Virus record (IMG/VR): IMGVR_UViG_3300045988_180880
Coordinates: 1 to 64,000 of that record
Source: a virus
Strand: one strand, 5' to 3'
Length of the DNA stretch: 64,000 nt
Part shown: one piece after another, positions 2,904 to 56,300 of the stretch
How the letters are laid out: each line of letters begins with the position of its first letter
How positions within the stretch are numbered: position 1 is the first letter of the stretch
The notes under the pieces: generated by a model
Databases searched by the model: none
What the model saw: the letters and a program-made list of their open reading frames with translations, nothing else
What the model was told of the DNA's origin: nothing
Made by a program: the position numbers and the translations under genes

Positions 2904-4259
2904 TTAAAGTTGATTAATAATTTGTTCAGTATATGCTACCGGATCGAATTTCTTAAGCTCTTTCAATCTTGTCTTGAGCTCTTTTATACGATCCGAAGTA
3001 TCTTTATTTTTTCTAAGGTAACTGATAGGCTTTGACATAACAGAACTAACTATTTCCTGAGGCATTCTAAATACTTTCATAATCTCTTCGTCAGTTGCTT
3101 TTGGATTTTTGTTTAATATATAATCCGAAATTAATGGAATAGCCTCTAAAACCGCAATATCAAAAGTAGTTTTTTCTATCTTCTTCTGATTTACTTTTAC
3201 AATTAGATCTATGTAATTTTTATAAGTATAATCTAACCAATCATATAAACCAATTCGAAACATTGTGGATCCAGTAGTTACGTTTGTTGTGTAGTTTGTA
3301 GCACTATAGCAACACTTTCTTGCTAGATCTTCAATTTCTTCAATAGATATTCCTCTTGCTCCTGGAACTTTAGATATTACCATTTTAGGACCATTAATAT
3401 CAGTAAGATCTTCCATATATACTTTTCCTTCTTCTGCAAGTTTTTTAAACTTTTTAAAATTAGGTGTAAATAAGAAAGTATCTCCTTCAAATAATATTCC
3501 TGGATTACCAAAATTATCAGTTACTCTTGTTAATTTGTATGAATATATTACTCTACCTTTACCTGTTTTCCATAATCTATCAAGTTCTGAATTTTCTTTG
3601 TCAATTATTAAGTTTGCATTCGGTTCTAGGAGTAACGGGTTATTATTTATATAGGCTTGGTATAATGATTTCGGACTAAAATTCGGATAATCATTCTTAA
3701 CACCTATGCACAGACCAGTTACCGATGTTTTCATGTAAAGACAAAGAGGTATAGGAAGTGGAAGATAAGATATTTCCATTGGTCCTACTGGCGATTCTAC
3801 CATAGGAACCTCTTTCCATAATTCTCCAAGTACTCTATTGTATACATCTGAAACCATTTGTTTTGTATATCGAGGAGCGGCATACTGATTGTATACACCA
3901 TTTATTTCCGTATATCCCCATGAACCGTGACCTTCAAAAACTCCAGTATGTACGAGATTAGCATTAAGTTCTTCAATACCGGAAAGACTATGAGGATGAT
4001 AGTTTGCTACACTTGAAATTACTGTAGTACTAGGTATCATCTTCCCTTTTGGAAATTGAAGAGCTGAATATATTAATCTTCTATAACTAGGTTTACAACC
4101 ATCTTGTATAAATGCTGTATGTCTTTGATTATTAATATAATTACCAAAATCTAAAAAAGCATCTCTTGCTATTTCTCCAATAGCTTTTTGTTGAATTAAT
4201 TCTTCTTGTGTAATTTGTGGTAATTCTATTTCTTTCTTTTTTCTAGCCATATTATTCAA
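2904..4259 (-). CDS. type II DNA topoisomerase, DNA-cleavage (GyrA / T4 gp52-like) subunit
   Basis: DGCKPSYRRLIYSAL (GyrA DGLKPVHRRVLY), ANYHPHSLSG (YHPHGD), AAPRYTK (catalytic-Tyr RYTE motif). Confidence 0.85.
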   Translation of the reverse strand: MNNMARKKKEIELPQITQEELIQQKAIGEIARDAFLDFGNYINNQRHTAFIQDGCKPSYRRLIYSALQFPKGKMIPSTTVISSVANYHPHSLSGIEELNANLVHTGVFEGHGSWGYTEINGVYNQYAAPRYTKQMVSDVYNRVLGELWKEVPMVESPVGPMEISYLPLPIPLCLYMKTSVTGLCIGVKNDYPNFSPKSLYQAYINNNPLLLEPNANLIIDKENSELDRLWKTGKGRVIYSYKLTRVTDNFGNPGILFEGDTFLFTPNFKKFKKLAEEGKVYMEDLTDINGPKMVISKVPGARGISIEEIEDLARKCCYSATNYTTNVTTGSTMFRIGLYDWLDYTYKNYIDLIVKVNQKKIEKTTFDIAVLEAIPLISDYILNKNPKATDEEIMKVFRMPQEIVSSVMSKPISYLRKNKDTSDRIKELKTRLKELKKFDPVAYTEQIINQL

Positions 4260-5913: not shown

Positions 5914-6080
5914 ATATTTTTATCTATTTTATTATAGATAGTGAATACAGTATGCGTTACATCAAAGAATTTATCTTTGACTCGGTATTAGATTTACTTA
6001 GGATATTTTTTCTCTAAGGTCTTTCACCGAATTTACTCACTTATAATTTAAGACATTTCTGATTTAAACGGCCTAATTTG
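5869..6080 (-). other. intervening sequence splitting the Toprim ELxLxEG|DSAGG motif (candidate compact self-splicing intron)
   Basis: The upstream ORF reads ...CELFLCEG then QIRPFKSEMS-stop. Homology resumes at LSPAGS. Joining 6081 to 5868 is in frame, with U before the 5' junction and G (uuG) before the 3' junction. Confidence 0.45.
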
Positions 6081-7100
6081 ACCTTCACAGAGGAATAATT
6101 CACAATCCCATCTGTTTTTTCCAGTTGCGTCACTAAAACCCTCTATTAATTCAACCCTTGACTTAAACATATTTCTTCCCTGAGCATCATCAATCATTTT
6201 TTGCGCTTTTTCAGCTGCCGAGAATGATCTCATTGAATTATAAATAGTATTCAATCTATCTACATGTTCTTGCCAATAGTCAGGGTTAGATCTAAATATT
6301 TTTATGAATTCTTTTACTAATGCTCCTGTGAAATCCGATTGTTTTACTTTCCCAATAGATTTTAATCGTACTTTAGTTTGACTATCGAACGATATTACCT
6401 CTGCCAGGAGCACAACACATGATTTAAAACCATTCATAGTGTATTTATGAGTAATTTTATACTCAGCTCTAATTGCTTGGTCAAAACATGCTTCTATATA
6501 ATTTAAATGTTGTCCCGTATTTACTACAAGACCGTTCACACTACCATAACTACTTTTATTAGACATCTCAGGATCTACATCAAAATATATTAAAACTTTT
6601 ACTTCTGAATTTTTACTTGTATCTTCAGGAATAATAGTTTTAATAATTTTGTATTTATAAATATCAAGATCTGCAGCTGTCATATTTTTTCCATTTGCAA
6701 TAACAGTTACTTTTCTTTTATAAAATTCCTTCATTATAAGAAGAAAATAGTTTAAGTTATCATATGGAATAACAACTCTAGGGTCAGGAACATATGTAGT
6801 ACCTAGTTTGAATAAAACTATAGTACTCATTCCTGTTGGTAAATTCACGCCAAGTTTTTTATTTACATCAGAAAGTTTCATAGCACCTTCAAAAGTAAGA
6901 TTACCGTAATTCTCATATACAACTATATAGAATAGATCTTTTTTACTTCTAGGTCCTTGTGATTCCCAAAGTTGTTTTACTTCTGGAATAGATTTATCAT
7001 AATTATCTTGTGTAATCTTTGATAATAAAATATATTGTTCAGAAAGGGCACAGGTACAAGCACTTCCTACACCGTGCAAGTTTTCTATGATTTTCATCAT
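6048..7100 (-). CDS. type II topoisomerase ATPase-subunit, middle fragment (ATP-lid G2 motif plus transducer)
   Basis: NLHGVGSACTCALS (GGLHGVGasvvNALS), FDSQTKVRLKS (QTK loop), and it ends in ELFLCEG (Toprim Glu). Confidence 0.8.
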   Translation of the reverse strand: MMKIIENLHGVGSACTCALSEQYILLSKITQDNYDKSIPEVKQLWESQGPRSKKDLFYIVVYENYGNLTFEGAMKLSDVNKKLGVNLPTGMSTIVLFKLGTTYVPDPRVVIPYDNLNYFLLIMKEFYKRKVTVIANGKNMTAADLDIYKYKIIKTIIPEDTSKNSEVKVLIYFDVDPEMSNKSSYGSVNGLVVNTGQHLNYIEACFDQAIRAEYKITHKYTMNGFKSCVVLLAEVISFDSQTKVRLKSIGKVKQSDFTGALVKEFIKIFRSNPDYWQEHVDRLNTIYNSMRSFSAAEKAQKMIDDAQGRNMFKSRVELIEGFSDATGKNRWDCELFLCEGQIRPFKSEMS

Positions 7101-7729: not shown

Positions 7730-9091
7730 TTACATGTCTAATGGTTGGTTGTTTTCAGGATCTAATGCAGTAAGATGTCCTATAGATTTTAAAATGTTCC
7801 ATGCATCTTGACCATTTAAAACGTAATAATTATTTATTAAAGTATTTGATTTCAAACTTCTGTAAATTTTTCTTTGAGAACTATTAAGGTGCTCATCTTT
7901 GTATAAATCTTTTAAATTAGTATAAGTTTTTATTATTTTTGTTTTATCTTTTGAAATTATAAAATATACGTATTTTAATTTATTAAAAAGTGCATCATTA
8001 TCACCTTCTTTAATACATATATAAGATTTTTTACATAACATTGCAGATAATAAAGTTCCTGAAAGATTCAATCCTTTATTATAATCTGTTCCATATATAA
8101 ATTCATATGCTTCTCTAGTGTGTGTCTTTAAGATAATATCTCCATATAAATTACAAACGATAATAGTATTACTTATGTACTTTATTGTATTAATATTATT
8201 CATATTCTCTTTATTATTACATAGTTTAAGATTATCAAAATGATTATTTTTTCGATCTCTATCAATATGATCTACAATTTCTCCCTTTTCTAAATTTCTT
8301 CCTAGAATATATTCCATTATAATTCTATGAGCAGGGTATGTTTTATGTTTAATTGATACATGAACATATCCAGTAGTATTTCTTTCGTCACTATAGTATG
8401 ATAATTTCTCATCTATTTTAATAAATCCTTTTTTACATACATACAATCCTGGATACTTCCAATGTTCATACCATTCATAATCATCTAGATTTCCTGAAAA
8501 TCCTGGAATAATTCGATTTGGTTTTTCGTATTTCCAAATCATCCCTTTATAAGTTCCTCCTTTAATCGCAGCAGACTCTATAGAAGATCTTACATATTTA
8601 CTTGGAGTATCCCTTGCATAAAATCTCTCAACTTCTTTTCCATCTAGGGTATATCCAACATACATTCCTAAAAATTTTGTATTTCTTAGTGATACTTTAT
8701 CAGTTCTCCAGTTTTCTTCTGGAGTAACCCACTCTAAATTATTTAAAGTGTTATCACCTCTATTATTATTTATATGATTAACTACATTATATATGTTTGG
8801 ATTAGGGTTATTTAAGAATACAGAAGCAACCATTCTATGAACACTTGAATTAATTGATTTAGGCTTTCCATTTTCTCTATAAGTAGAGGTAAATCTTATA
8901 TATTTATTCTCACTAACTACCTTACTTAATAATCTTCCAGTTTCTAAATTTTTCATTTCCCCTCTCTTATTTACTCCATATCTTCCAGAAATTTCTTTAG
9001 GAACTATAGGAGCTTCAATAGGCATAAATACATCATCGGGTAAGAAAGGATATTTTTCACGTTGTACAAAAATTGAAGGTAAATTCTCCAT
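7730..9091 (-). CDS. HNH homing endonuclease (two HNH/NUMOD-like modules)
   Basis: VVNHINNNRGDNTLNNLEWVTPEEN and IVDHIDRDRKNNHFDNLKLCNNKENMNN. Confidence 0.8.
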   Translation of the reverse strand: MENLPSIFVQREKYPFLPDDVFMPIEAPIVPKEISGRYGVNKRGEMKNLETGRLLSKVVSENKYIRFTSTYRENGKPKSINSSVHRMVASVFLNNPNPNIYNVVNHINNNRGDNTLNNLEWVTPEENWRTDKVSLRNTKFLGMYVGYTLDGKEVERFYARDTPSKYVRSSIESAAIKGGTYKGMIWKYEKPNRIIPGFSGNLDDYEWYEHWKYPGLYVCKKGFIKIDEKLSYYSDERNTTGYVHVSIKHKTYPAHRIIMEYILGRNLEKGEIVDHIDRDRKNNHFDNLKLCNNKENMNNINTIKYISNTIIVCNLYGDIILKTHTREAYEFIYGTDYNKGLNLSGTLLSAMLCKKSYICIKEGDNDALFNKLKYVYFIISKDKTKIIKTYTNLKDLYKDEHLNSSQRKIYRSLKSNTLINNYYVLNGQDAWNILKSIGHLTALDPENNQPLDM

Positions 9092-10861: not shown

Positions 10862-11983
10862 TTATTTATTCTTTCTATAAGAAAGAGTTTCCGGATTATT
10901 CATATTTTCTTTTTGAGTTACTTCTCTTAGATTAGAGTATTCATTATTAATTGTCTCTACAGATCGAACAGGTTGAATATGATCTATTACATTATTTTCT
11001 TCTATCTTTTTCCCAGAAATAGTTTCATAAACTAATCTATGAACTAAAATTGATTTTCCTCCGATTTTTATTCTATACCTTTGTTCTTTTTCTTCTAAAG
11101 TACCTATATTTTCTACTCCATTAATCTTTAGAATTCCACAAAGATTGGCTTCAACTTTATGAGAGGTAATAAATGGGTTAAGATACCATCCATTTTCTAT
11201 AACTGGATGACGAGATTTATAATCTTCGAGTGTTAAGTCTATTCTTTTCCATTCATAACCTTTGTAAGTAATTCTAATTCCACATAACACTTTTCTATAG
11301 CCTGGAAAATATTTCTTTAGTTCACTAGCATTATACCATTCTTTAATAACTTTTTTATCTTTTGGATCGATTTGAAGATACTTGTATTTATGACAAAAAT
11401 TATTTAATCTATTCTCTGCCTTATTGTTTTCGCTATAAGTAATCCACTCCAGATTTTCTTTGCAAAAATTTAAGGGATTTAAATCTTTATGGTTTATTAT
11501 ATTATTTACTTCTGGATATAAATTAGGAATAAATAGATAAGCGATTAAAGAGTGATTATAAACATGAATACTAATATCAAATAAAGAAAAGCTTCTTTCG
11601 GGATATATTCTTCTATTTGAAATTTTATTTTTAAGATTAGATTTTCTTACTTTTCCTTTATAATTACATTGAATTGCGCCATACTTATTAATAAAGTATA
11701 TATTAGATAAATCATAATCTAATAATTTCTTAAAATTTTCATTTCGATCAATTAATTCAAATTTAAAAAATTTTTCAAGATCTATCCATTGATTATCTGG
11801 AATATCATCATAATAGTACTCCATAAGATCATCCGTTTCACGATTTAAAACTAAAATTTTCTTTTCTCCAGAGTTTAATTCTACTTCTGCGACATCATAG
11901 TAGTCTTCGGGGTAAGATTCGTGATGTTTAAATAGGTTTCTCCATTCTGATGGAAGTTCTGTTTTTAAATGATTCTGTAACAT
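10862..11983 (-). CDS. HNH homing endonuclease
   Basis: IINHKDLNPLNFCKENLEWITYSEN and VIDHIQP...NLREVTQKENMNN. Paralogue of 7730..9091. Confidence 0.8.
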   Translation of the reverse strand: MLQNHLKTELPSEWRNLFKHHESYPEDYYDVAEVELNSGEKKILVLNRETDDLMEYYYDDIPDNQWIDLEKFFKFELIDRNENFKKLLDYDLSNIYFINKYGAIQCNYKGKVRKSNLKNKISNRRIYPERSFSLFDISIHVYNHSLIAYLFIPNLYPEVNNIINHKDLNPLNFCKENLEWITYSENNKAENRLNNFCHKYKYLQIDPKDKKVIKEWYNASELKKYFPGYRKVLCGIRITYKGYEWKRIDLTLEDYKSRHPVIENGWYLNPFITSHKVEANLCGILKINGVENIGTLEEKEQRYRIKIGGKSILVHRLVYETISGKKIEENNVIDHIQPVRSVETINNEYSNLREVTQKENMNNPETLSYRKNK

Positions 11984-12187: not shown

Positions 12188-12198
12188 TCTTATATATG
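12188..12198 (+). promoter_or_regulatory. recurrent promoter-like motif TCTTATATATG
   Basis: 36 nt upstream of ATG 12235. Confidence 0.5.
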
Positions 12199-34709: not shown

Positions 34710-34712
34710 GAA

Positions 34713-34734
34713 AAGGGTGGAATTACCCACCCTT
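34713..34734 (+). terminator. intrinsic terminator
   Basis: AAGGGTGG-AATTAC-CCACCCTT followed by TATTTTT. Confidence 0.75.
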
Positions 34735-34765
34735 TATTTTTCCACCGTCTAGAAAAGACTAAAAA

Positions 34766-34776
34766 CCTTATATATG
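34766..34776 (+). promoter_or_regulatory. recurrent promoter-like motif CCTTATATATG (no ORF downstream)
   Basis: First of two perfect copies at the left edge of the ORF-free island. Confidence 0.5.
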
Positions 34777-34833
34777 AAAGGAAAATAGAGTTCCTAAGAG
34801 GTTAAAATAATACCGTCTAAGAAACCCTATTAG

Positions 34834-34844
34834 CCTTATATATG
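34834..34844 (+). promoter_or_regulatory. recurrent promoter-like motif CCTTATATATG (no ORF downstream)
   Basis: Second perfect copy, 68 nt after the first. Confidence 0.5.
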
Positions 34845-35700
34845 TAATAAAAGATAGAAATATCTGATATTACCTAAAGACATAGTATATCTAATTTAAA
34901 AGATATATTATGTCTTTTATACTTTAGCGTTATACATAGATATAACTAGAACTTATAATACATACGAAAGGTGTGATGACGGAGTATTATAAGGAGAGAC
35001 TAGGAGTTGCTAACCTAGAAGTCGTCAGAACGACTTTATAAAATTCATCACCTTGATCTAACTTATAATTATGAAATATAATATAAGGACAGGTGGAAGT
35101 TGTTATACCACTTGAGTAGATATTTAAATAGTATTAAAATATCTTTTACAAGGATAAGTTCTGAGCGTAATTAAATAAGTATATTAAGTTACTATATTGA
35201 ATTATACTATTTATCAAAATAGAGAAAATACTTAATATAACTTAATAATTGATAAAGGTTGGACACATAACTTGGCAAGCACTAACAAATTATAATGTGC
35301 ATTTAGCTGAGTTTAACAAAATAAATTAAAATTAAATAAATTCCTTGTAATAGATGATATTATAAGGCCACGATATATTGAGATAAACCTGATAAAGGAT
35401 TATCAAGAGAAATATATCAAAGACATGTAGCCAAATATATGTGGTGAACTATGAAAATAATAAAGGACCTGTATAGTCTAGAGTTATTAGTAATAGGATG
35501 TGAATTTAGAGGGATTTAATATACAGTTAAATTATTATATATAACCTATGATAAATACCGATGAGGAAATTATAAAGATTATATATAATTCTAAGTTAGA
35601 AATCTTTAAGAGAGAAGCTTAGAGTAAAAACAACCATTTCTAAGTAAATTACTTAGAAAATAGAGACAAAAGAATATTAACAACAAAAAATTATAGAATT

Positions 35701-35826
35701 ATGAAAGCAGTTGTAAAAAACGTTGGAATTTTTGTAGCAGGAATAGCAGCAAAAGTAGTATTTGATTATGGTTATAAGAAAACTAAAAAATGTTTAAATA
35801 ACCGGAAAAACAAAAAAGCTGAATAA
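35701..35826 (+). CDS. small membrane protein (41 aa), paralogue of 35917..36153
   Basis: MKAVVKNVGIFVAGIAAKVVF...KKAE-stop. It shares its last codons and a 75-bp downstream repeat with the next gene. Below the ORF-track cut-off. Confidence 0.5.
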   Translation: MKAVVKNVGIFVAGIAAKVVFDYGYKKTKKCLNNRKNKKAE

Positions 35827-35892
35827 GCTAAAACAACCAGCCCGAGTTATGGATTAACTTGGGTTTAGAGACAATAATTAACAAAATTAATA
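35818..35892 (+). repeat. 75-bp direct repeat, copy 1 (gene end plus terminator hairpin plus spacer)
   Basis: Identical to 36145-36219. Contains the hairpin CCCGAGTT-N7-AACTTGGG (35841-35863). Confidence 0.85.
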
Positions 35893-35916
35893 ACTTAAAT
35901 AATAGGAGGAAAAATT

Positions 35917-36153
35917 ATGAAACTAATTAACTCAGCAGTAACGAAATTTGGTGCAACAAAAGTTGTAGCAGTAGCAGCTGGAGCAGGAATGGCATTAGGA
36001 GTAGCAACTACCTTAGGATGTCAAAAAGCCTATAAAAAACTCAAACCGAAAGGTCTTAGAGATGAGGATTTGGAAAAATTGGTAGAAGAAACCGTCAACC
36101 TAAAACCGGATGCAGAAAAAGAAAAACCTGCTGAAGAAGTAAAAGCTGAATAA
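35917..36153 (+). CDS. small membrane protein with a charged C-terminal tail
   Basis: KVVAVAAGAGMALGVATTLG helix. One of the few genes preceded by AGGAGG. Confidence 0.6.
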   Translation: MKLINSAVTKFGATKVVAVAAGAGMALGVATTLGCQKAYKKLKPKGLRDEDLEKLVEETVNLKPDAEKEKPAEEVKAE

Positions 36154-36219
36154 GCTAAAACAACCAGCCCGAGTTATGGATTAACTTGGGTTTAGAGACA
36201 ATAATTAACAAAATTAATA
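36145..36219 (+). repeat. 75-bp direct repeat, copy 2
   Basis: Identical to 35818-35892. Hairpin at 36168-36190. Confidence 0.85.
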
Positions 36220-36223
36220 TATT

Positions 36224-36412
36224 ATGAAAAAGATAACAGAAGTCATTATTTTTATGACAATGATATTAGCAGGAATTGCTTGGATATTAGGATTTGATAT
36301 AATTTATTCAATATCAGCAATAATTATGGGAACTACCGGAATTTATTATTGGTTTAGATATATGATTCCGGAACTATTTAACAGCAATGAAGAAGAATTC
36401 ATTGATGACTAA
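36224..36412 (+). CDS. small two-helix membrane protein with an acidic tail
   Basis: VIIFMTMILAGIAWILGF and ISAIIMGTTGIYYWF, ending NSNEEEFIDD. Confidence 0.6.
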   Translation: MKKITEVIIFMTMILAGIAWILGFDIIYSISAIIMGTTGIYYWFRYMIPELFNSNEEEFIDD

Positions 36413-36414
36413 CC

Positions 36415-36438
36415 GGAGGGATAACAAAATTTCCCTCC
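36415..36438 (+). terminator. hairpin terminator
   Basis: GGAGGG-N12-CCCTCC followed by ATTTTCATTTTT. Confidence 0.55.
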
Positions 36439-36443
36439 ATTTT

Positions 36444-36514
36444 CATTTTTGTAGTTAGGTGAATTCCTAACCTGATGAGATCACGAGGTTAAACTCAAGA
36501 TCGAAACAGAAATG
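36444..36514 (+). ncRNA. hammerhead self-cleaving ribozyme, type III topology
   Basis: CAUUUUUGU-A|GUUAGG-UGAAUU-CCUAAC-CUGAUGA-GAUC-N16-GAUC-GAA-ACAGAAAUG. All core nucleotides and three helices are present. Predicted cleavage after A36453. Confidence 0.9.
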
Positions 36515-36648
36515 GAAACTAAAGATTTCCTTTTGATTTTATATATCAAGAGACTATAACTAAACAAAAGGAAATTTACAAAGAAAAAAAAGAGGTCTTG
36601 ACTTTAATTAGTCAAGTTGATCCTCTTTTTATTTTTTTCTTCAGAATG

Positions 36649-37095
36649 CTAAGGAATTTGATTTTGTAGCATATAAAATTCATTTTTTAACATATCAATT
36701 CTACATTTGATATCAGCTATTTCACTTGCTATATCACGTAGTGGAGAATTACAGAAAAATTCTTGATTACTATTCCAATAAATATTATTTCCTGTAATAA
36801 CACTATTAATATTAGTTATAGCTGTTTCTATATTATGTAATCTTTGCATTAAATTAAAATCTCCAAAGATTCTTTTATCTATAGTAGATACTAATCTCTC
36901 TTCATTATTTACTATTATCTCAGGATTATCCATTATTTTCTCTAGATAACCTCGAAGATAATTAATAACTATATCTAAAATCTCATCCGATTGTGCAGAG
37001 GATAGAATTTTTTCAACTACAGCTTTTACTACAGAATCAGAAATTTTGATATCATTACTTAATTCAATATTTGTATTACTCGTTTTCATTGCCAT
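36649..37095 (-). CDS. hypothetical protein
   Basis: 148-aa ORF, last gene of the minus-strand block. Confidence 0.6.
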   Translation of the reverse strand: MAMKTSNTNIELSNDIKISDSVVKAVVEKILSSAQSDEILDIVINYLRGYLEKIMDNPEIIVNNEERLVSTIDKRIFGDFNLMQRLHNIETAITNINSVITGNNIYWNSNQEFFCNSPLRDIASEIADIKCRIDMLKNEFYMLQNQIP

Positions 37096-42410: not shown

Positions 42411-42781
42411 GTAAATTTTATATTATCTAAGTTTTTTACTAAATGTTTCAAATCATTCGCATAAGGACAATTTTTAGATCCTTGGATAAATGATTTTTTG
42501 AGTTCTTCTAGGTCAACACTAACTTCCTGAATGATTAAGCAATCGATCATATTTCTATATCGAAGATGTTCTAATAAAGAAGTATCATCACAAAATCGAA
42601 ATATACAAAATTTTCCAAGACAAGTTTTTACATAAATTTGTTTAGGAGTTATTCTCTTAGTCGCTAACCCATCTAAATTATATTCTAAAATAAAGTTCTC
42701 TCCAAGAATATTTCCACTAACAATTCCAATATCAGTTGATAATTCTTTTTGAAGTCTTCTGTAAAAACTAATCTTCACCAT
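42407..42781 (-). CDS. hypothetical protein, member 1 of a three-gene paralogue array downstream of rtcB
   Basis: KRITPKQIYVKTCLGKFCIF ... VSVDLEELKKSFIQGSKN. Confidence 0.55.
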   Translation of the reverse strand: MVKISFYRRLQKELSTDIGIVSGNILGENFILEYNLDGLATKRITPKQIYVKTCLGKFCIFRFCDDTSLLEHLRYRNMIDCLIIQEVSVDLEELKKSFIQGSKNCPYANDLKHLVKNLDNIKFT

Positions 42782-43565
42782 CTCCAGTTCCTGCTTTAAT
42801 AGATAAAATAGGTTTAATAATTTCCAAAATTTTCACTGTATCTTGTATTCCAGTTATTATTTCAGAAGGATCTTTATATACCTCGGGCGCTTCATCAATA
42901 CAGGCGAGACATACAGAACTAGAATATACATTGCCCATACTTTCTTTAAATTCTTGGAGACTTAATCGTTCTCTTGCTTCTCGCCTAGACATTAAGCGCC
43001 CAGCACCATGAGGAGCACTATAATTTCTATCAGGATTACCAAGACCTTCACAAATTAAGGTTCCAAAAGCCATGTTCATAGGGATAATTACTTTCTGTCC
43101 GGCGTAAGCTTGAATAGATCCTTTTCTAATTATTCTATCTCTTGGATCTATATAATTATGAATAGACTCAATCCTCTCAAGCTCTTTTCCGAGTCCAAGA
43201 GCTTTTTTAATTCTCTCTGATATCACCATTCGATTATATTCTGCATAAGCTTGAGCAAAAAACATATCCCCGAGATAACCAGATATATCTTCATGTGTTA
43301 CTAAGAATCTACTAGGCGGAATTGTATATCGGCCGGAAGCATGAAGTTTTTCTATTTCTTCTTTGATTTTCTTCCCTTGACCTTTATACTTCTCCTTAAT
43401 TCCTCTCTCGGCCGCTTTCATATCCGCCTCAATTATCCTAGTTTTCCCAATTTGTTTTTTCCAATAAGCAAGTATTTTTATTCCTAAGTTTCTTGATCCT
43501 GTATGAATAGTAACCCAAACAGACTCTTTATCTTCTTCTACCTGTCCAAGTTCTATAAAATGATT
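42768..43565 (-). CDS. rtcB: RNA 3'-phosphate ligase RtcB, exon 2
   Basis: Begins NHFIELG (second half of the GGGNHFIE motif). Also HTGSRNLG and APHGAGR. The ORF-track ORF 42768..43607 extends 14 codons into the intron. Confidence 0.85.
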   Translation of the reverse strand, partial: NHFIELGQVEEDKESVWVTIHTGSRNLGIKILAYWKKQIGKTRIIEADMKAAERGIKEKYKGQGKKIKEEIEKLHASGRYTIPPSRFLVTHEDISGYLGDMFFAQAYAEYNRMVISERIKKALGLGKELERIESIHNYIDPRDRIIRKGSIQAYAGQKVIIPMNMAFGTLICEGLGNPDRNYSAPHGAGRLMSRREARERLSLQEFKESMGNVYSSSVCLACIDEAPEVYKDPSEIITGIQDTVKILEIIKPILSIKAGTGDGED

Positions 43566-43815
43566 CAATTTTGTTACTAATACCTTTTCAAGTATTGGAT
43601 AGGTCATTTCTGCCTATCTCTAGTAGTTCTTTTTCCTACTAGTTCGGAGCACACCTTCTGACTTTTATGCCAGGCCAAGTCCCTCTGCTCTCTACGGGGG
43701 TATAAGTTTTAACACTATAACCTTCCCTCGGTGATTAGCATCTCAGCTTCTCCCGATATGGACGACTTTTACAACGAATGACTATTAATCATTCTGGAGG
43801 CAATCAATTTTTCTC
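43566..43815 (-). ncRNA. group I self-splicing intron (no internal ORF) in rtcB
   Basis: It splits GTLGGG|NHFIEL. P1 is readable: exon GGAGGU | gagaaaaauugauu GCCUCC, with U:G at the splice site. The intron ends in G (uuG). The region is visibly richer in GC than its flanks, with several hairpins (GAAUGA/UCAUUC, CUAGUAG/CUACUAG, GAUAGG/CCUAUC). Confidence 0.8.
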
Positions 43816-45267
43816 ACCTCCACCAAGAGTTCCAAGAGATTTATAGAAAATTCCCTCAGACATACCAATTCTTTTAAGGGTTTTTGATATAAATTTCTCT
43901 ATCTCTCCAAGACCCTCATAACATACAAATTCAGGCCATAAACTTCTTGCTCTTTCAAGTTTTGTTTTAAAAAATTTCTTGAATTCTTTTTCTTGGATAA
44001 CAGTTTTCTCATTAATCTCCATACCCATTGGAATATCTCTACGAATTCTAGCATCCCAAAGAGCTAATTCTGGATCTCCCGAAGGCATTTTATATTTTAC
44101 ACTTAACATTCCACAATTACCAGTAATAAAAATTCTTCCATTTCTTCTACATACAAAATATCCAGTATCCGTGGTAAAACAATATTTAAATCCATCAATA
44201 GAAGGAACAATACTAGATTTTTTATTATAAGTAACTATTTTATTCCTAGCAGGACTCACATAATAAACTATATTCCATCTCTCTTTTCCTAAAATTTCTG
44301 AAATTCCTGCTCTAGTATTTGTAGCCGAAAATGCAAATTGAATTACATCTATATTATCTTTATTAGTATTTGAATAAGAACTTCTATATCCATTATGTCC
44401 ATCCCAAAGTAAACACTCTTCTTTTACTATTTCAAGTTGCTCTTTAGTAGCCAGATAATACTTTTTAAGATCTTTGTTTATTGAAAAATCTACATTAAAT
44501 CGTATAGAAGTAGATTTATCTTTTAATATTGAAATTTTATACTCAATATTAGCATCCTCTAATAATTTTTTTGCTCTTTCTATTTTTCTTTCTTTTCTAA
44601 AATGTAATTCTATTCTATTATGATCTTTAGCAGGTATTATCTTTCCATCCGCTTGTACCATAATATCTATTCTAATCATTTCATTGGACAAACTAACACC
44701 TGGGTTATTAGATATATTAAAACAAGTTTTAAATCCATAAAAACCTTTAGATAAATTGAGTTTATCTAATTCTATTGGAGTAATTTTTCTATGATTCAAT
44801 TTATGTCCCTTCCAATATCCAGAGTATACTAATAAATTATGTTCTGAACTAATCAATTGATCTAATCCACTTTTCTTATTATAATATTGATGAAATTCAG
44901 TACAAGGAGATTTTATATACTTTATAGGTTTTAAAAATTTTCCCTCATCCGTTTCCGGATCAAATTGCATAATCTCTTCATCAGCATAGTTAGATATTTT
45001 AATCCACCCAGTTGGTGTTAACACTTCTGTATCACAATCTAGACACGATATATCACAGCCAACTACATCAGGATCAAGAGGACCGCCAGAATAAGTTTGA
45101 GTATATCCTACTACGCAACCTTTCCCACAATGAACATCCTCCATAATCCTAACTGTTTCATTCTCAGTCATTTTAGTATTTAAAAGTTCGTAGACTTGAG
45201 AAACTGCTTCTGGTTCAATATTATCAGTAAAGACAATTGCTTTACCATATTTTCCTGTTATTTCCAT
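43816..45267 (-). CDS. rtcB: RNA 3'-phosphate ligase RtcB, exon 1 (contains the intein)
   Basis: VRIMEDVHCGKGCVVG, VVGCDIS|C...N|CGM (the DIGCGM motif interrupted), and it ends GTLGGG. Confidence 0.85.
44116..45045 (-). mobile_element. intein (310 aa) with an insert resembling a LAGLIDADG homing endonuclease
   Basis: Starts CLDCDTEVLTPTGWIKI (block A). Block B SSEHNLLV. Ends FVCRRNGRIFITGN followed by the +1 Cys. Internal IDIMVQADGKI and ECLLWDGHNGY resemble LAGLIDADG motifs. Confidence 0.8.
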
Positions 45268-55747: not shown

Positions 55748-56300
55748 ATAATCTTCCTATTTTTATAAATTCTCCTATTAAATTTACAGCTTCAGTTATA
55801 GAGTTTCCGTCATCATATGTTGATGTTGATATTAAAATCTGTTCAGTATACTCAAGATATCCAATATTATTTATCACTCTATTCCGAATAAACCGGAAAT
55901 TTATTTCACATTTATCTAGAATTGAATTTATGTAGTTACTTTCTGGATTAATTTTAATAAGATCTTCTAAAAACCTCATAAATCTACGTTGCGTTCTACT
56001 AGTAAATTTCATTATTTTATCCAAAGGTTCTAAGTAATCTCGAAAAAGTTTTTCTAAGAAGTAGAATGAAAGCTCATCTATCTTCAGAAAATTTCCATTA
56101 CCAGTATAATATTCTACTAAATAGTTAGAGCTATCACTGAGATCTAAGCAAACTTTGAAAGGTTCCATGAGATTTACAAAAGATTCATCCTCCTGAAGAA
56201 GTTTTCTGTGAAAATACGTATCTATATCTCTACATAAACTCAGATATTCTTTATATGTTTCTTTACATATTCTTCTTAGTCTATTCACATGATCTTCCAT
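55734..56300 (-). CDS. hypothetical protein
   Basis: 188-aa ORF overlapping both enzyme genes. Confidence 0.55.
   Translation of the reverse strand: MEDHVNRLRRICKETYKEYLSLCRDIDTYFHRKLLQEDESFVNLMEPFKVCLDLSDSSNYLVEYYTGNGNFLKIDELSFYFLEKLFRDYLEPLDKIMKFTSRTQRRFMRFLEDLIKINPESNYINSILDKCEINFRFIRNRVINNIGYLEYTEQILISTSTYDDGNSITEAVNLIGEFIKIGRLYEEE

Follow-up and report, generated by a model that had tools for sequence, protein, structure and literature searches.

The window analysed here is the whole of a 64,000-nucleotide (nt) stretch of viral DNA, positions 1–64,000 of the IMG/VR record IMGVR_UViG_3300045988_180880, and the element in question is a putative type III hammerhead ribozyme on its plus strand at 36440–36518. 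The ribozyme begins 28 nt past the stop codon (36410–36412) of a gene encoding a small hydrophobic, transmembrane-like protein of 62 amino acids (36224–36412, +), and it is therefore located in the 3' untranslated region (UTR) of that gene. In the list of open reading frames (ORFs), this gene is the last of three small genes in tandem (35701–35826, 35917–36153, and 36224–36412), which encode hydrophobic proteins of 41, 78, and 62 amino acids; a PHROG search returned no family for the 62-residue product. A hairpin, here called T1, lies between the stop codon and the ribozyme, and a long A+U-rich hairpin and a bidirectional terminator-like hairpin lie downstream, ahead of the end of a converging minus-strand gene at 36649. 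The distances to the two flanking genes are as claimed in an earlier description of the locus made from the letters alone (hereafter the sequence-only reading).

The base-by-base assignment of 36444–36514 (+) in the sequence-only reading agrees with the sequence at every base, and all of the invariant core positions are present in the correct order. The 5' strand of helix III (36440–36452) covers positions 16.13 to 16.1 in hammerhead numbering, and its inner 9 nt (36444–36452) read CAUUUUUGU. The cleavage triplet GUA (G36451 U36452 A36453) precedes G36454, which satisfies the NUH rule with an N17 that is not G, and hammerhead numbering places the predicted scissile bond between A17 (36453) and G1.1 (36454), the same position as proposed before. 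Helix I follows as the closed hairpin GUUAGG-UGAAUU-CCUAAC (36454–36459 with 36466–36471; 6 base pairs (bp) and a 6-nt loop), and then the core segment C3 U4 G5 A6 U7 G8 A9, or CUGAUGA (36472–36478). Helix II opens with G10.1:C11.1 in its inner GAUC/GAUC stem (36479–36482 with 36499–36502) and extends across an AC/AA internal loop into an outer GAG/CUC stem (36485–36487 with 36494–36496) that is capped by the loop GUUAAA. The second core segment G12 A13 A14, or GAA (36503–36505), leads into the 3' strand of helix III (36506–36518, inner part 36506–36514), which runs from A15.1 onward and contains an AUG at 36512–36514; A36506 and U36452 form the A15.1:U16.1 pair. The strand order (helix III 5' strand, helix I hairpin, core, helix II hairpin, GAA, helix III 3' strand) is that of type III, and both core segments are invariant in all relatives. 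The 6-bp hairpin of helix I is recovered by the fold and by a structural descriptor, and helix II is seen with its extension as 4+3 bp. Helix III agrees with the 9 bp and single G:U pair described earlier, and the descriptor lengthens it to 13 bp with two G:U pairs.

When the segment is folded with RNAfold, the minimum-energy and centroid structures coincide in the hammerhead junction (−19.4 kcal/mol, 41% of the ensemble, z = −2.9), which persists in the fold of the full 241-nt intergenic region (z = −6.05). A descriptor scan of both strands of the window returned a single type III candidate, with helices of 6, 4, and 13 bp. The combination CTGATGAG..CGAAAC occurs once in the window, against an expectation of 0.00. 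A loose type III descriptor (helices of at least 4, 3, and 4 bp) gave 5 matches in 600 dinucleotide-shuffled 64-kb strands, and a stricter one (at least 5, 4, and 6 bp), still weaker than the observed 6/4(+3)/13, gave 0 in 600 such strands. Descriptors for types I and II gave one weak match in the window, at about 56036–56093 (−), which lies in an ORF, has 3 bp in each of helices II and III, and was judged to be a chance match.

A scan of the whole window at the Rfam gathering threshold gave no family match, and in an E-value search on 301 nt the hammerhead was dropped by the speed filters. In a search on 87 nt, RF00008 (Hammerhead_3, clan CL00010) was the top Rfam match with every core base aligned correctly, at a score of 16.8 bits versus a gathering score of 48.5 (E = 0.17). 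The sequence-only reading had named a score below the gathering threshold as a ground for giving up the hammerhead; formally the score does fall below it, but this cut-off is not diagnostic, since six textbook hammerheads fall below it too. These six (L078, L089, L094, L095, and two in L096) are unrelated viral type III hammerheads that were retrieved by an IMG/VR pattern scan fixing only the core and junction bases (21 nt). Because six independent examples fail it, the RF00008 threshold overlooks compact viral type III hammerheads generally; the gathering score is a curation cut-off and not a defining property of the class. A further match to the general pattern (L085) is a type I hammerhead and was excluded from the type III set.

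Two covariance models were built: R1 from the window's phage family, and R2 from the six unrelated viral hammerheads only (a MAFFT alignment of the six proved to be misaligned, and a covariance-model alignment was used instead). R1 recovers the six independent hammerheads at E = 2e-10 to 5e-6. In the R2 seed alignment, 11 of the 16 pairs change on both sides, a result equalled by 0 of 500 shuffles. Run on the window with filters off, R2 aligns to 36447–36511 with 48.9 bits (E = 4.7e-12), part of which is owed to the choice of seeds because the retrieval pattern fixes 21 core and junction nt; the helices of the six seeds are independent of the window's, and the shared part is those 21 nt. In 128 kb, the runner-up match of R2 reaches 13.1 bits. 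Type III hammerheads, particularly compact A+U-rich ones, will be undercounted wherever a survey of viral contigs leans on the Rfam threshold.

The hammerhead is identical or nearly so in more than 20 contigs of human-gut jumbo phages. The identical 79-nt element is found in 13 IMG/VR contigs of 166–378 kb, and the element is also present in 5 ENA contigs of 148–372 kb, at least 2 of which are labelled human gut. All 14 relatives retrieved by way of the neighbouring minus-strand gene retain the element (13 identical, 1 with a single loop change), and no copy has a change at any of the 11 invariant core positions. Two variants carry single changes, from C to U in the internal loop of helix II (L058) and from U to C in loop 2 (L099). 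A more distant lineage (L003, L008, and L102), in which about 25% of nearby positions differ, departs from the window in two places, helix I and the outer portion of helix II. At 36458:36467 the window has a G:C pair and these three have A:U, which is a compensatory change, and the outer stem of helix II is swapped in this lineage for the unrelated (U)GAUA/UAUC(A), with the inner 4 bp and the flanking A residues kept. L003 and the window have the same core, loop 1, inner helix II, and helix III, and their upstream genes are 78% identical; between the window and L009, there are 0 changes in the 106 nt of T1 and hammerhead, and the adjacent gene is 89.5% identical. As far as sequence comparison can tell, this pattern of change between lineages is the one that a hammerhead predicts. 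The family as a whole provides four distinct sequences with one pair changed on both sides and no pair broken, and 116 of 500 shuffles do equally well. One locus that matched a pattern fixing helix III (L063) was set aside as a chance match within coding sequence.

The sequence around the ribozyme is also conserved in parts. T1 (36415–36438, +) has the stem GGAGGGA/UCCCUCC (7 bp, 5 of them G:C), a 10-nt loop, and then AUUUUCAUUUUUGU, with the U-rich tract UUUUCAUUUUUGU beginning 1 nt after the stem. By its sequence, T1 looks like an intrinsic terminator; a terminator consensus scan made no call there, because the loop of T1 is longer than 8 nt. The U-rich tail of T1 also supplies one side of helix III, its 5' strand. 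Measured against all 45-nt stretches of the window, the 45 nt preceding the ribozyme rank within the top 1% for stability, and T1 is 92.6% identical to its counterpart in L003, compared with 78% for the upstream gene. The ortholog of this gene in L003 encodes 64 amino acids (3339–3533, −) and is followed by the same hairpin and hammerhead. On the other side of the ribozyme, the long A+U-rich hairpin (36523–36577, +) has a 13-bp basal stem, AGAUUUCCUUUUG/CAAAAGGAAAUUU, and has about 90% identity to L003, whose version of the stem is remodelled yet still 12 bp long.

The bidirectional terminator-like hairpin (36580–36637) consists of an A tract, GAGG..CCUC, an inner CUUGACU/AGUCAAG stem, and a U tract, as seen in the fold and in a minus-strand terminator call. 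Modelled in this way, the hairpin would terminate transcription arriving from either side, of the plus-strand unit and of the converging minus-strand block, and it is not conserved in L003 (71% identity). The convergent junction at which the sequence-only reading placed the ribozyme is present in the window (36412 versus 36649) and absent from the L003 lineage; because the downstream genes of L003 run in the same direction, the convergent setting is a feature of the window's lineage only. Judged by these sequence comparisons, the conserved unit runs from the small gene through T1 and the hammerhead to the long hairpin, and the ribozyme is to be assigned to the small gene, at its 3' end. The L003 lineage also has a tRNA-like element, which is on the hammerhead's strand and follows it after about 390 nt (L003, 2778–2844, −; L102, 5437–5503, −). 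This element scores 46.3 bits with the Rfam tRNA model, has an anticodon loop of about 3 nt, is not called by ARAGORN, and is absent from the window.

The AUG in the 3' strand of helix III opens a micro-ORF of 15 codons, METKDFLLILYIKRL, at 36512–36559 (+). Its counterpart in L003 is METKDFLLMILYIKMRQ, which has 17 codons (3187–3238, −) and differs by two in-frame 3-nt indels. The first 8 codons are identical at every nucleotide, third positions included, which argues for a constraint on the RNA rather than on the peptide. At 28% G+C, open frames of 15 codons are no rarity, and chance alone would put two indels in frame about 1 time in 9.

The surroundings of other viral hammerheads were surveyed in at least 65 distinct type III examples outside the window's family (IMG/VR loci L078–L223), which fall into 30 sequence clusters; the figures refer to the 30 clusters among the matches listed, in a sample that was pattern-selected and with control windows that are mostly coding. 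In 30% of clusters, the upstream 45 nt rank in the top 5% of local 45-nt windows by stability (binomial p = 1e-5), and in 47% they rank in the top 10%. The downstream 45 nt have unusually little structure (median percentile 0.835, none below 10%), and the upstream and downstream stabilities differ in a paired Wilcoxon test (p = 2e-5). A stable hairpin directly upstream is common and strongly enriched among viral type III hammerheads. Usually, 0–6 nt separate this hairpin from helix III, whose 5' strand is U-rich in L173 and L141 and resembles a terminator tail, as in the window. Of the 30 clusters, 21 have a same-strand ORF that stops no more than 100 nt upstream, 14 have one that starts no more than 100 nt downstream, and 2 are at convergent-only junctions. 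The upstream percentile of the window (0.01) fits this picture, and its downstream percentile (0.105) marks a region that is more structured than usual. The combination of an upstream hairpin with an open downstream stretch suggests that the upstream message is protected at its 3' end and the downstream message is released. A literature search for an earlier description of the terminator–hammerhead arrangement found none, which does not prove that none exists.

The identification of the element as a canonical type III hammerhead is backed by its core, its helices, the chance tests, the independent covariance model, and its retention in relatives, all of which are properties of sequence. We regard it as reasonably probable that this is a genuine type III hammerhead in the 3' UTR of the small gene, predicted to be active, which would give the upstream message a defined, hairpin-protected 3' end; transcription of the element, its cleavage in vivo, and the effect of cleavage are steps that we infer. 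In the proposed mechanism, plus-strand transcripts that pass T1 would fold in the order in which they are made, helix I and helix II before helix III, and helix III would close when 36506–36518 pairs back on the U-rich tail of T1. The 2'-OH of A36453 would then attack the adjacent phosphate. The upstream mRNA would be left with the stable T1 hairpin and a 15-nt tail bearing a 2',3'-cyclic phosphate, and a fragment of about 185 nt with a 5'-OH, comprising the ribozyme body, the long hairpin, and the terminator, would be freed. The net effect would be an upstream message with a hairpin-protected 3' end that is physically uncoupled from the downstream transcript. Such 3'-end maturation agrees with the general proposal that hammerheads process multi-gene transcripts (PMC3088659, PMC6765202).

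Several points weigh against this interpretation. RF00008 scores the site far under its gathering score, the R2 score is owed in part to the choice of seeds, the survey sample was selected by pattern and compared with mostly coding controls, and covariation within the family is thin, since it amounts to one covarying pair in four sequences and is equalled by 116/500 shuffles. A tertiary contact between stems I and II is required for fast cleavage at physiological Mg2+ (PMC3088659), and inspection found no Watson–Crick pseudoknot of at least 4 bp between loop 1 (UGAAUU) and the helix II loops that is conserved in either lineage. No tertiary contact is therefore recognised in this hammerhead; the invariance of loop 1 and of the A residues that flank inner helix II would be in keeping with a non-canonical contact. 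The 13-bp helix III could, in the folding model, keep the cleavage products paired and so favour religation. With a pairing energy of about −9 to −11.5 kcal/mol for this helix, dissociation of the products is plausible and not guaranteed. Finally, T1 looks like a good terminator, and many transcripts may therefore stop before the ribozyme is made.

The same conserved block could be read from its other side, with a real ribozyme that serves the 5' end of the downstream RNA, either by producing a small RNA of about 185 nt with a 5'-OH or by exposing the AUG at 36512 in a manner like that of RiboJ. RiboJ-type insulators (the sTRSV hammerhead with a hairpin) are engineered elements that sit before a ribosome-binding site. 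By analogy, the hammerhead of the window would cut off the upstream RNA and stay with a hairpin at the 5' end of the downstream RNA, but unlike in RiboJ there is no clear downstream gene, only the 15-codon open frame. The long hairpin at 36523–36577 is co-conserved with the ribozyme (90% to L003 versus 71–78% for its neighbours), and METKDFLLILYIKRL is retained in L003 as METKDFLLMILYIKMRQ with in-frame indels. In the survey, 14/30 clusters among the matches listed have a same-strand ORF start within 100 nt downstream, and the downstream 45 nt are unusually unstructured; the downstream region of the window, however, is structured (percentile 0.105), unlike the typical case. The nucleotide identity of the first 8 codons points to the RNA, both the frame and its in-frame indels are within the reach of chance, and no Rfam family matches the downstream RNA, so that a role for the downstream 5' end, although it has some evidence in its favour, is unlikely. 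The sequence-only reading had instead proposed that the ribozyme cuts read-through transcripts at the convergent junction, which would make it a fail-safe that separates RNA antisense to the minus-strand block and leaves it to be degraded. The position of the ribozyme fits this idea, since the plus-strand unit ends before it (36412), the minus-strand block ends beyond it (36649), and the bidirectional terminator is downstream of it. However, the L003/L102 lineage has the same unit followed by co-directional genes without convergence, and only 2/30 clusters among the matches listed are at convergent-only junctions. An RNA cut does not halt polymerase, and the bidirectional terminator lies about 70–120 nt past the 3' end of the ribozyme and about 130–185 nt past the cut site; a fail-safe function is accordingly quite improbable.

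The phage RtcB ligase (42768–45267, −) raises the further idea that the hammerhead acts together with it in religation or circularisation of RNA. RtcB joins 2',3'-cyclic-phosphate and 5'-OH ends, which are the ends that hammerheads make, and fragments of RtcB lie about 6–9 kb away in the window. Against this, the window has one hammerhead in 64 kb and therefore no unit bounded by two cuts, the RtcB fragments are in a different transcription block on the opposite strand, and phage RtcB is usually tied to tRNA repair; we consider a joint action extremely improbable. It also seems very unlikely that the element is a chance or decayed look-alike that does not cleave, within a block conserved as a compound terminator or an RNA-stability element. 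The low Rfam score, the single covarying pair, and the conservation of the entire non-coding block beyond the ribozyme alone all speak for such a look-alike, and inactive hammerhead-like RNAs are on record (PMC3088659, Figure S7 legend). Yet every copy has all 11 invariant core positions intact, a descriptor weaker than the observed structure found nothing in 600 shuffled strands, the independent model R2 finds the site at E = 4.7e-12, and the changes between lineages spare the core and keep the pairing.

An extension of the hammerhead interpretation would treat T1 and the ribozyme as one coupled device, a local case of a phage module composed of a hairpin, a type III hammerhead, and an open leader, in which cutting turns on a downstream peptide or a 5'-OH RNA. 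Since the U-rich tail of T1 also serves in helix III as its 5' strand, the ribozyme would form or not depending on whether transcription terminates or reads through. If this were so, cleavage would cap the upstream mRNA with a protected end and free the 3' strand of helix III, which carries the micro-ORF AUG. We hold this version to be rather doubtful.

The assignment to a 3' end-forming ribozyme can be set beside known hammerheads. The intergenic regions of phages and prophages hold hammerheads of all three types, which cleave polycistronic transcripts (Perreault et al., 2011, PMC3088659), and mRNA processing is the function that is usually suggested; phage hammerheads have been known since 2011, and their function is still described as unknown (PMC6765202). 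The site in the window resembles the RF00008 class in its full core, the A15.1:U16.1 and G10.1:C11.1 pairs, the GUA triplet, closed helices I and II, and an open helix III, and differs from it in A+U-rich helices, a 6-nt loop 1, a 16-nt insertion in helix II with an extra stem, and an unusually long helix III of 13 bp. Like the examples of Perreault et al. (2011), it is intergenic in a phage, lies beside short genes, and presumably processes a multi-gene transcript. Many of those hammerheads, however, occur in 2–3 copies flanking a gene and have a pseudoknot between loop I and stem II (PMC3088659), whereas that of the window is in single copy, has no recognisable pseudoknot, and belongs to a jumbo gut phage lineage. 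The hammerheads in the IMG/VR loci L095, L096, L173, and L141 share with it a hairpin at or near helix III, a helix I of about 6 bp, and a helix II of about 4 bp. Other IMG/VR type III hammerheads have no sequence similarity to it outside the core and are mostly followed by an unstructured leader and a co-directional gene, whereas the window has a long hairpin and a terminator. The site adds a well-conserved type III hammerhead to an abundant lineage of human-gut jumbo phages.

The window belongs to an uncultured jumbo phage of the human gut, probably one of the "Jug" phages, a placement based on shared features: the human gut, contigs of 212–378 kb, 28–30% G+C, split genes, and HNH endonucleases. 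Bacteroides or Phocaeicola are the predicted hosts of Jug phages, and the report describing these phages mentions group I introns and inteins but not hammerheads (PMC12880540). A megablast search of 5 kb against GenBank phages gave no match, and with the topoisomerase as protein query no relative exceeded 30% identity, so no close cultured relative is known.

Within the tandem small genes upstream of the hammerhead, an 84-nt direct repeat (98% identical) occurs at 35814–35897 and 36141–36224. Each repeat spans a gene end, the CCCGAGUU/AACUUGGG hairpin, and the leader of the next gene, and the relative L001 is without one repeat unit and the 78-residue protein gene. The sequence-only reading had described the gap that holds the ribozyme as one of very few non-coding gaps, a claim that does not stand in view of about 950 nt just upstream (34740–35700, +) that have no ORF of at least 40 codons. 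This stretch follows a terminator-like hairpin at about 34712–34745, appears to be in the same transcription unit as the hammerhead, and is 77–83% conserved in L003. Its segment 34850–35700 folds far better than shuffled sequences (z = −5.55, 20 shuffles), and the stretch may be a large structured non-coding RNA; Rfam searches of it, an E-value search included, gave no family. A segment of about 280 nt (34974–35253) is absent from the relatives L044 and L045, which are otherwise 98–99% identical, and could be a small mobile insertion.

The ORF-free stretch starts with two tandem promoter-like repeats, ACCGTCTa...CTTATATATG, at 34744–34784 and 34812–34852. With one mismatch allowed, CTTATATATG occurs 36 times in the window versus 15 expected, a count that 0 of 100 shuffles reach; examples are at 12189(+), 34767(+), 34835(+), 46611(−), 49462(−), 9731(−), and 62902(+). 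The copies lie mostly upstream of gene blocks and match them in orientation. The last 8 nt of CTTATATATG resemble what we take to be the Bacteroides −7 promoter box, TAnnTTTG, which would fit the predicted host.

Two other loci in the window contain split genes. The RtcB RNA ligase gene is divided between an ORF at 43804–45267 (−), which combines the RtcB N-terminus with an insert of about 310 amino acids that matches intein-bearing phage families, and an ORF at 42768–43607 (−), which covers RtcB profile positions 154–425. The 197-nt gap between them (43608–43803) gave no match in an Rfam E-value search, and it has the size of the small group I introns that the Jug phage report describes (PMC12880540). 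Fragments of topoisomerase II genes lie at 2904–4259, 6048–7100, 7730–9091, and 10862–11983 (−), interspersed with large HNH endonuclease genes, a fragmentation that fits the splitting of genes by homing elements set out for Jug phages in that report (PMC12880540).

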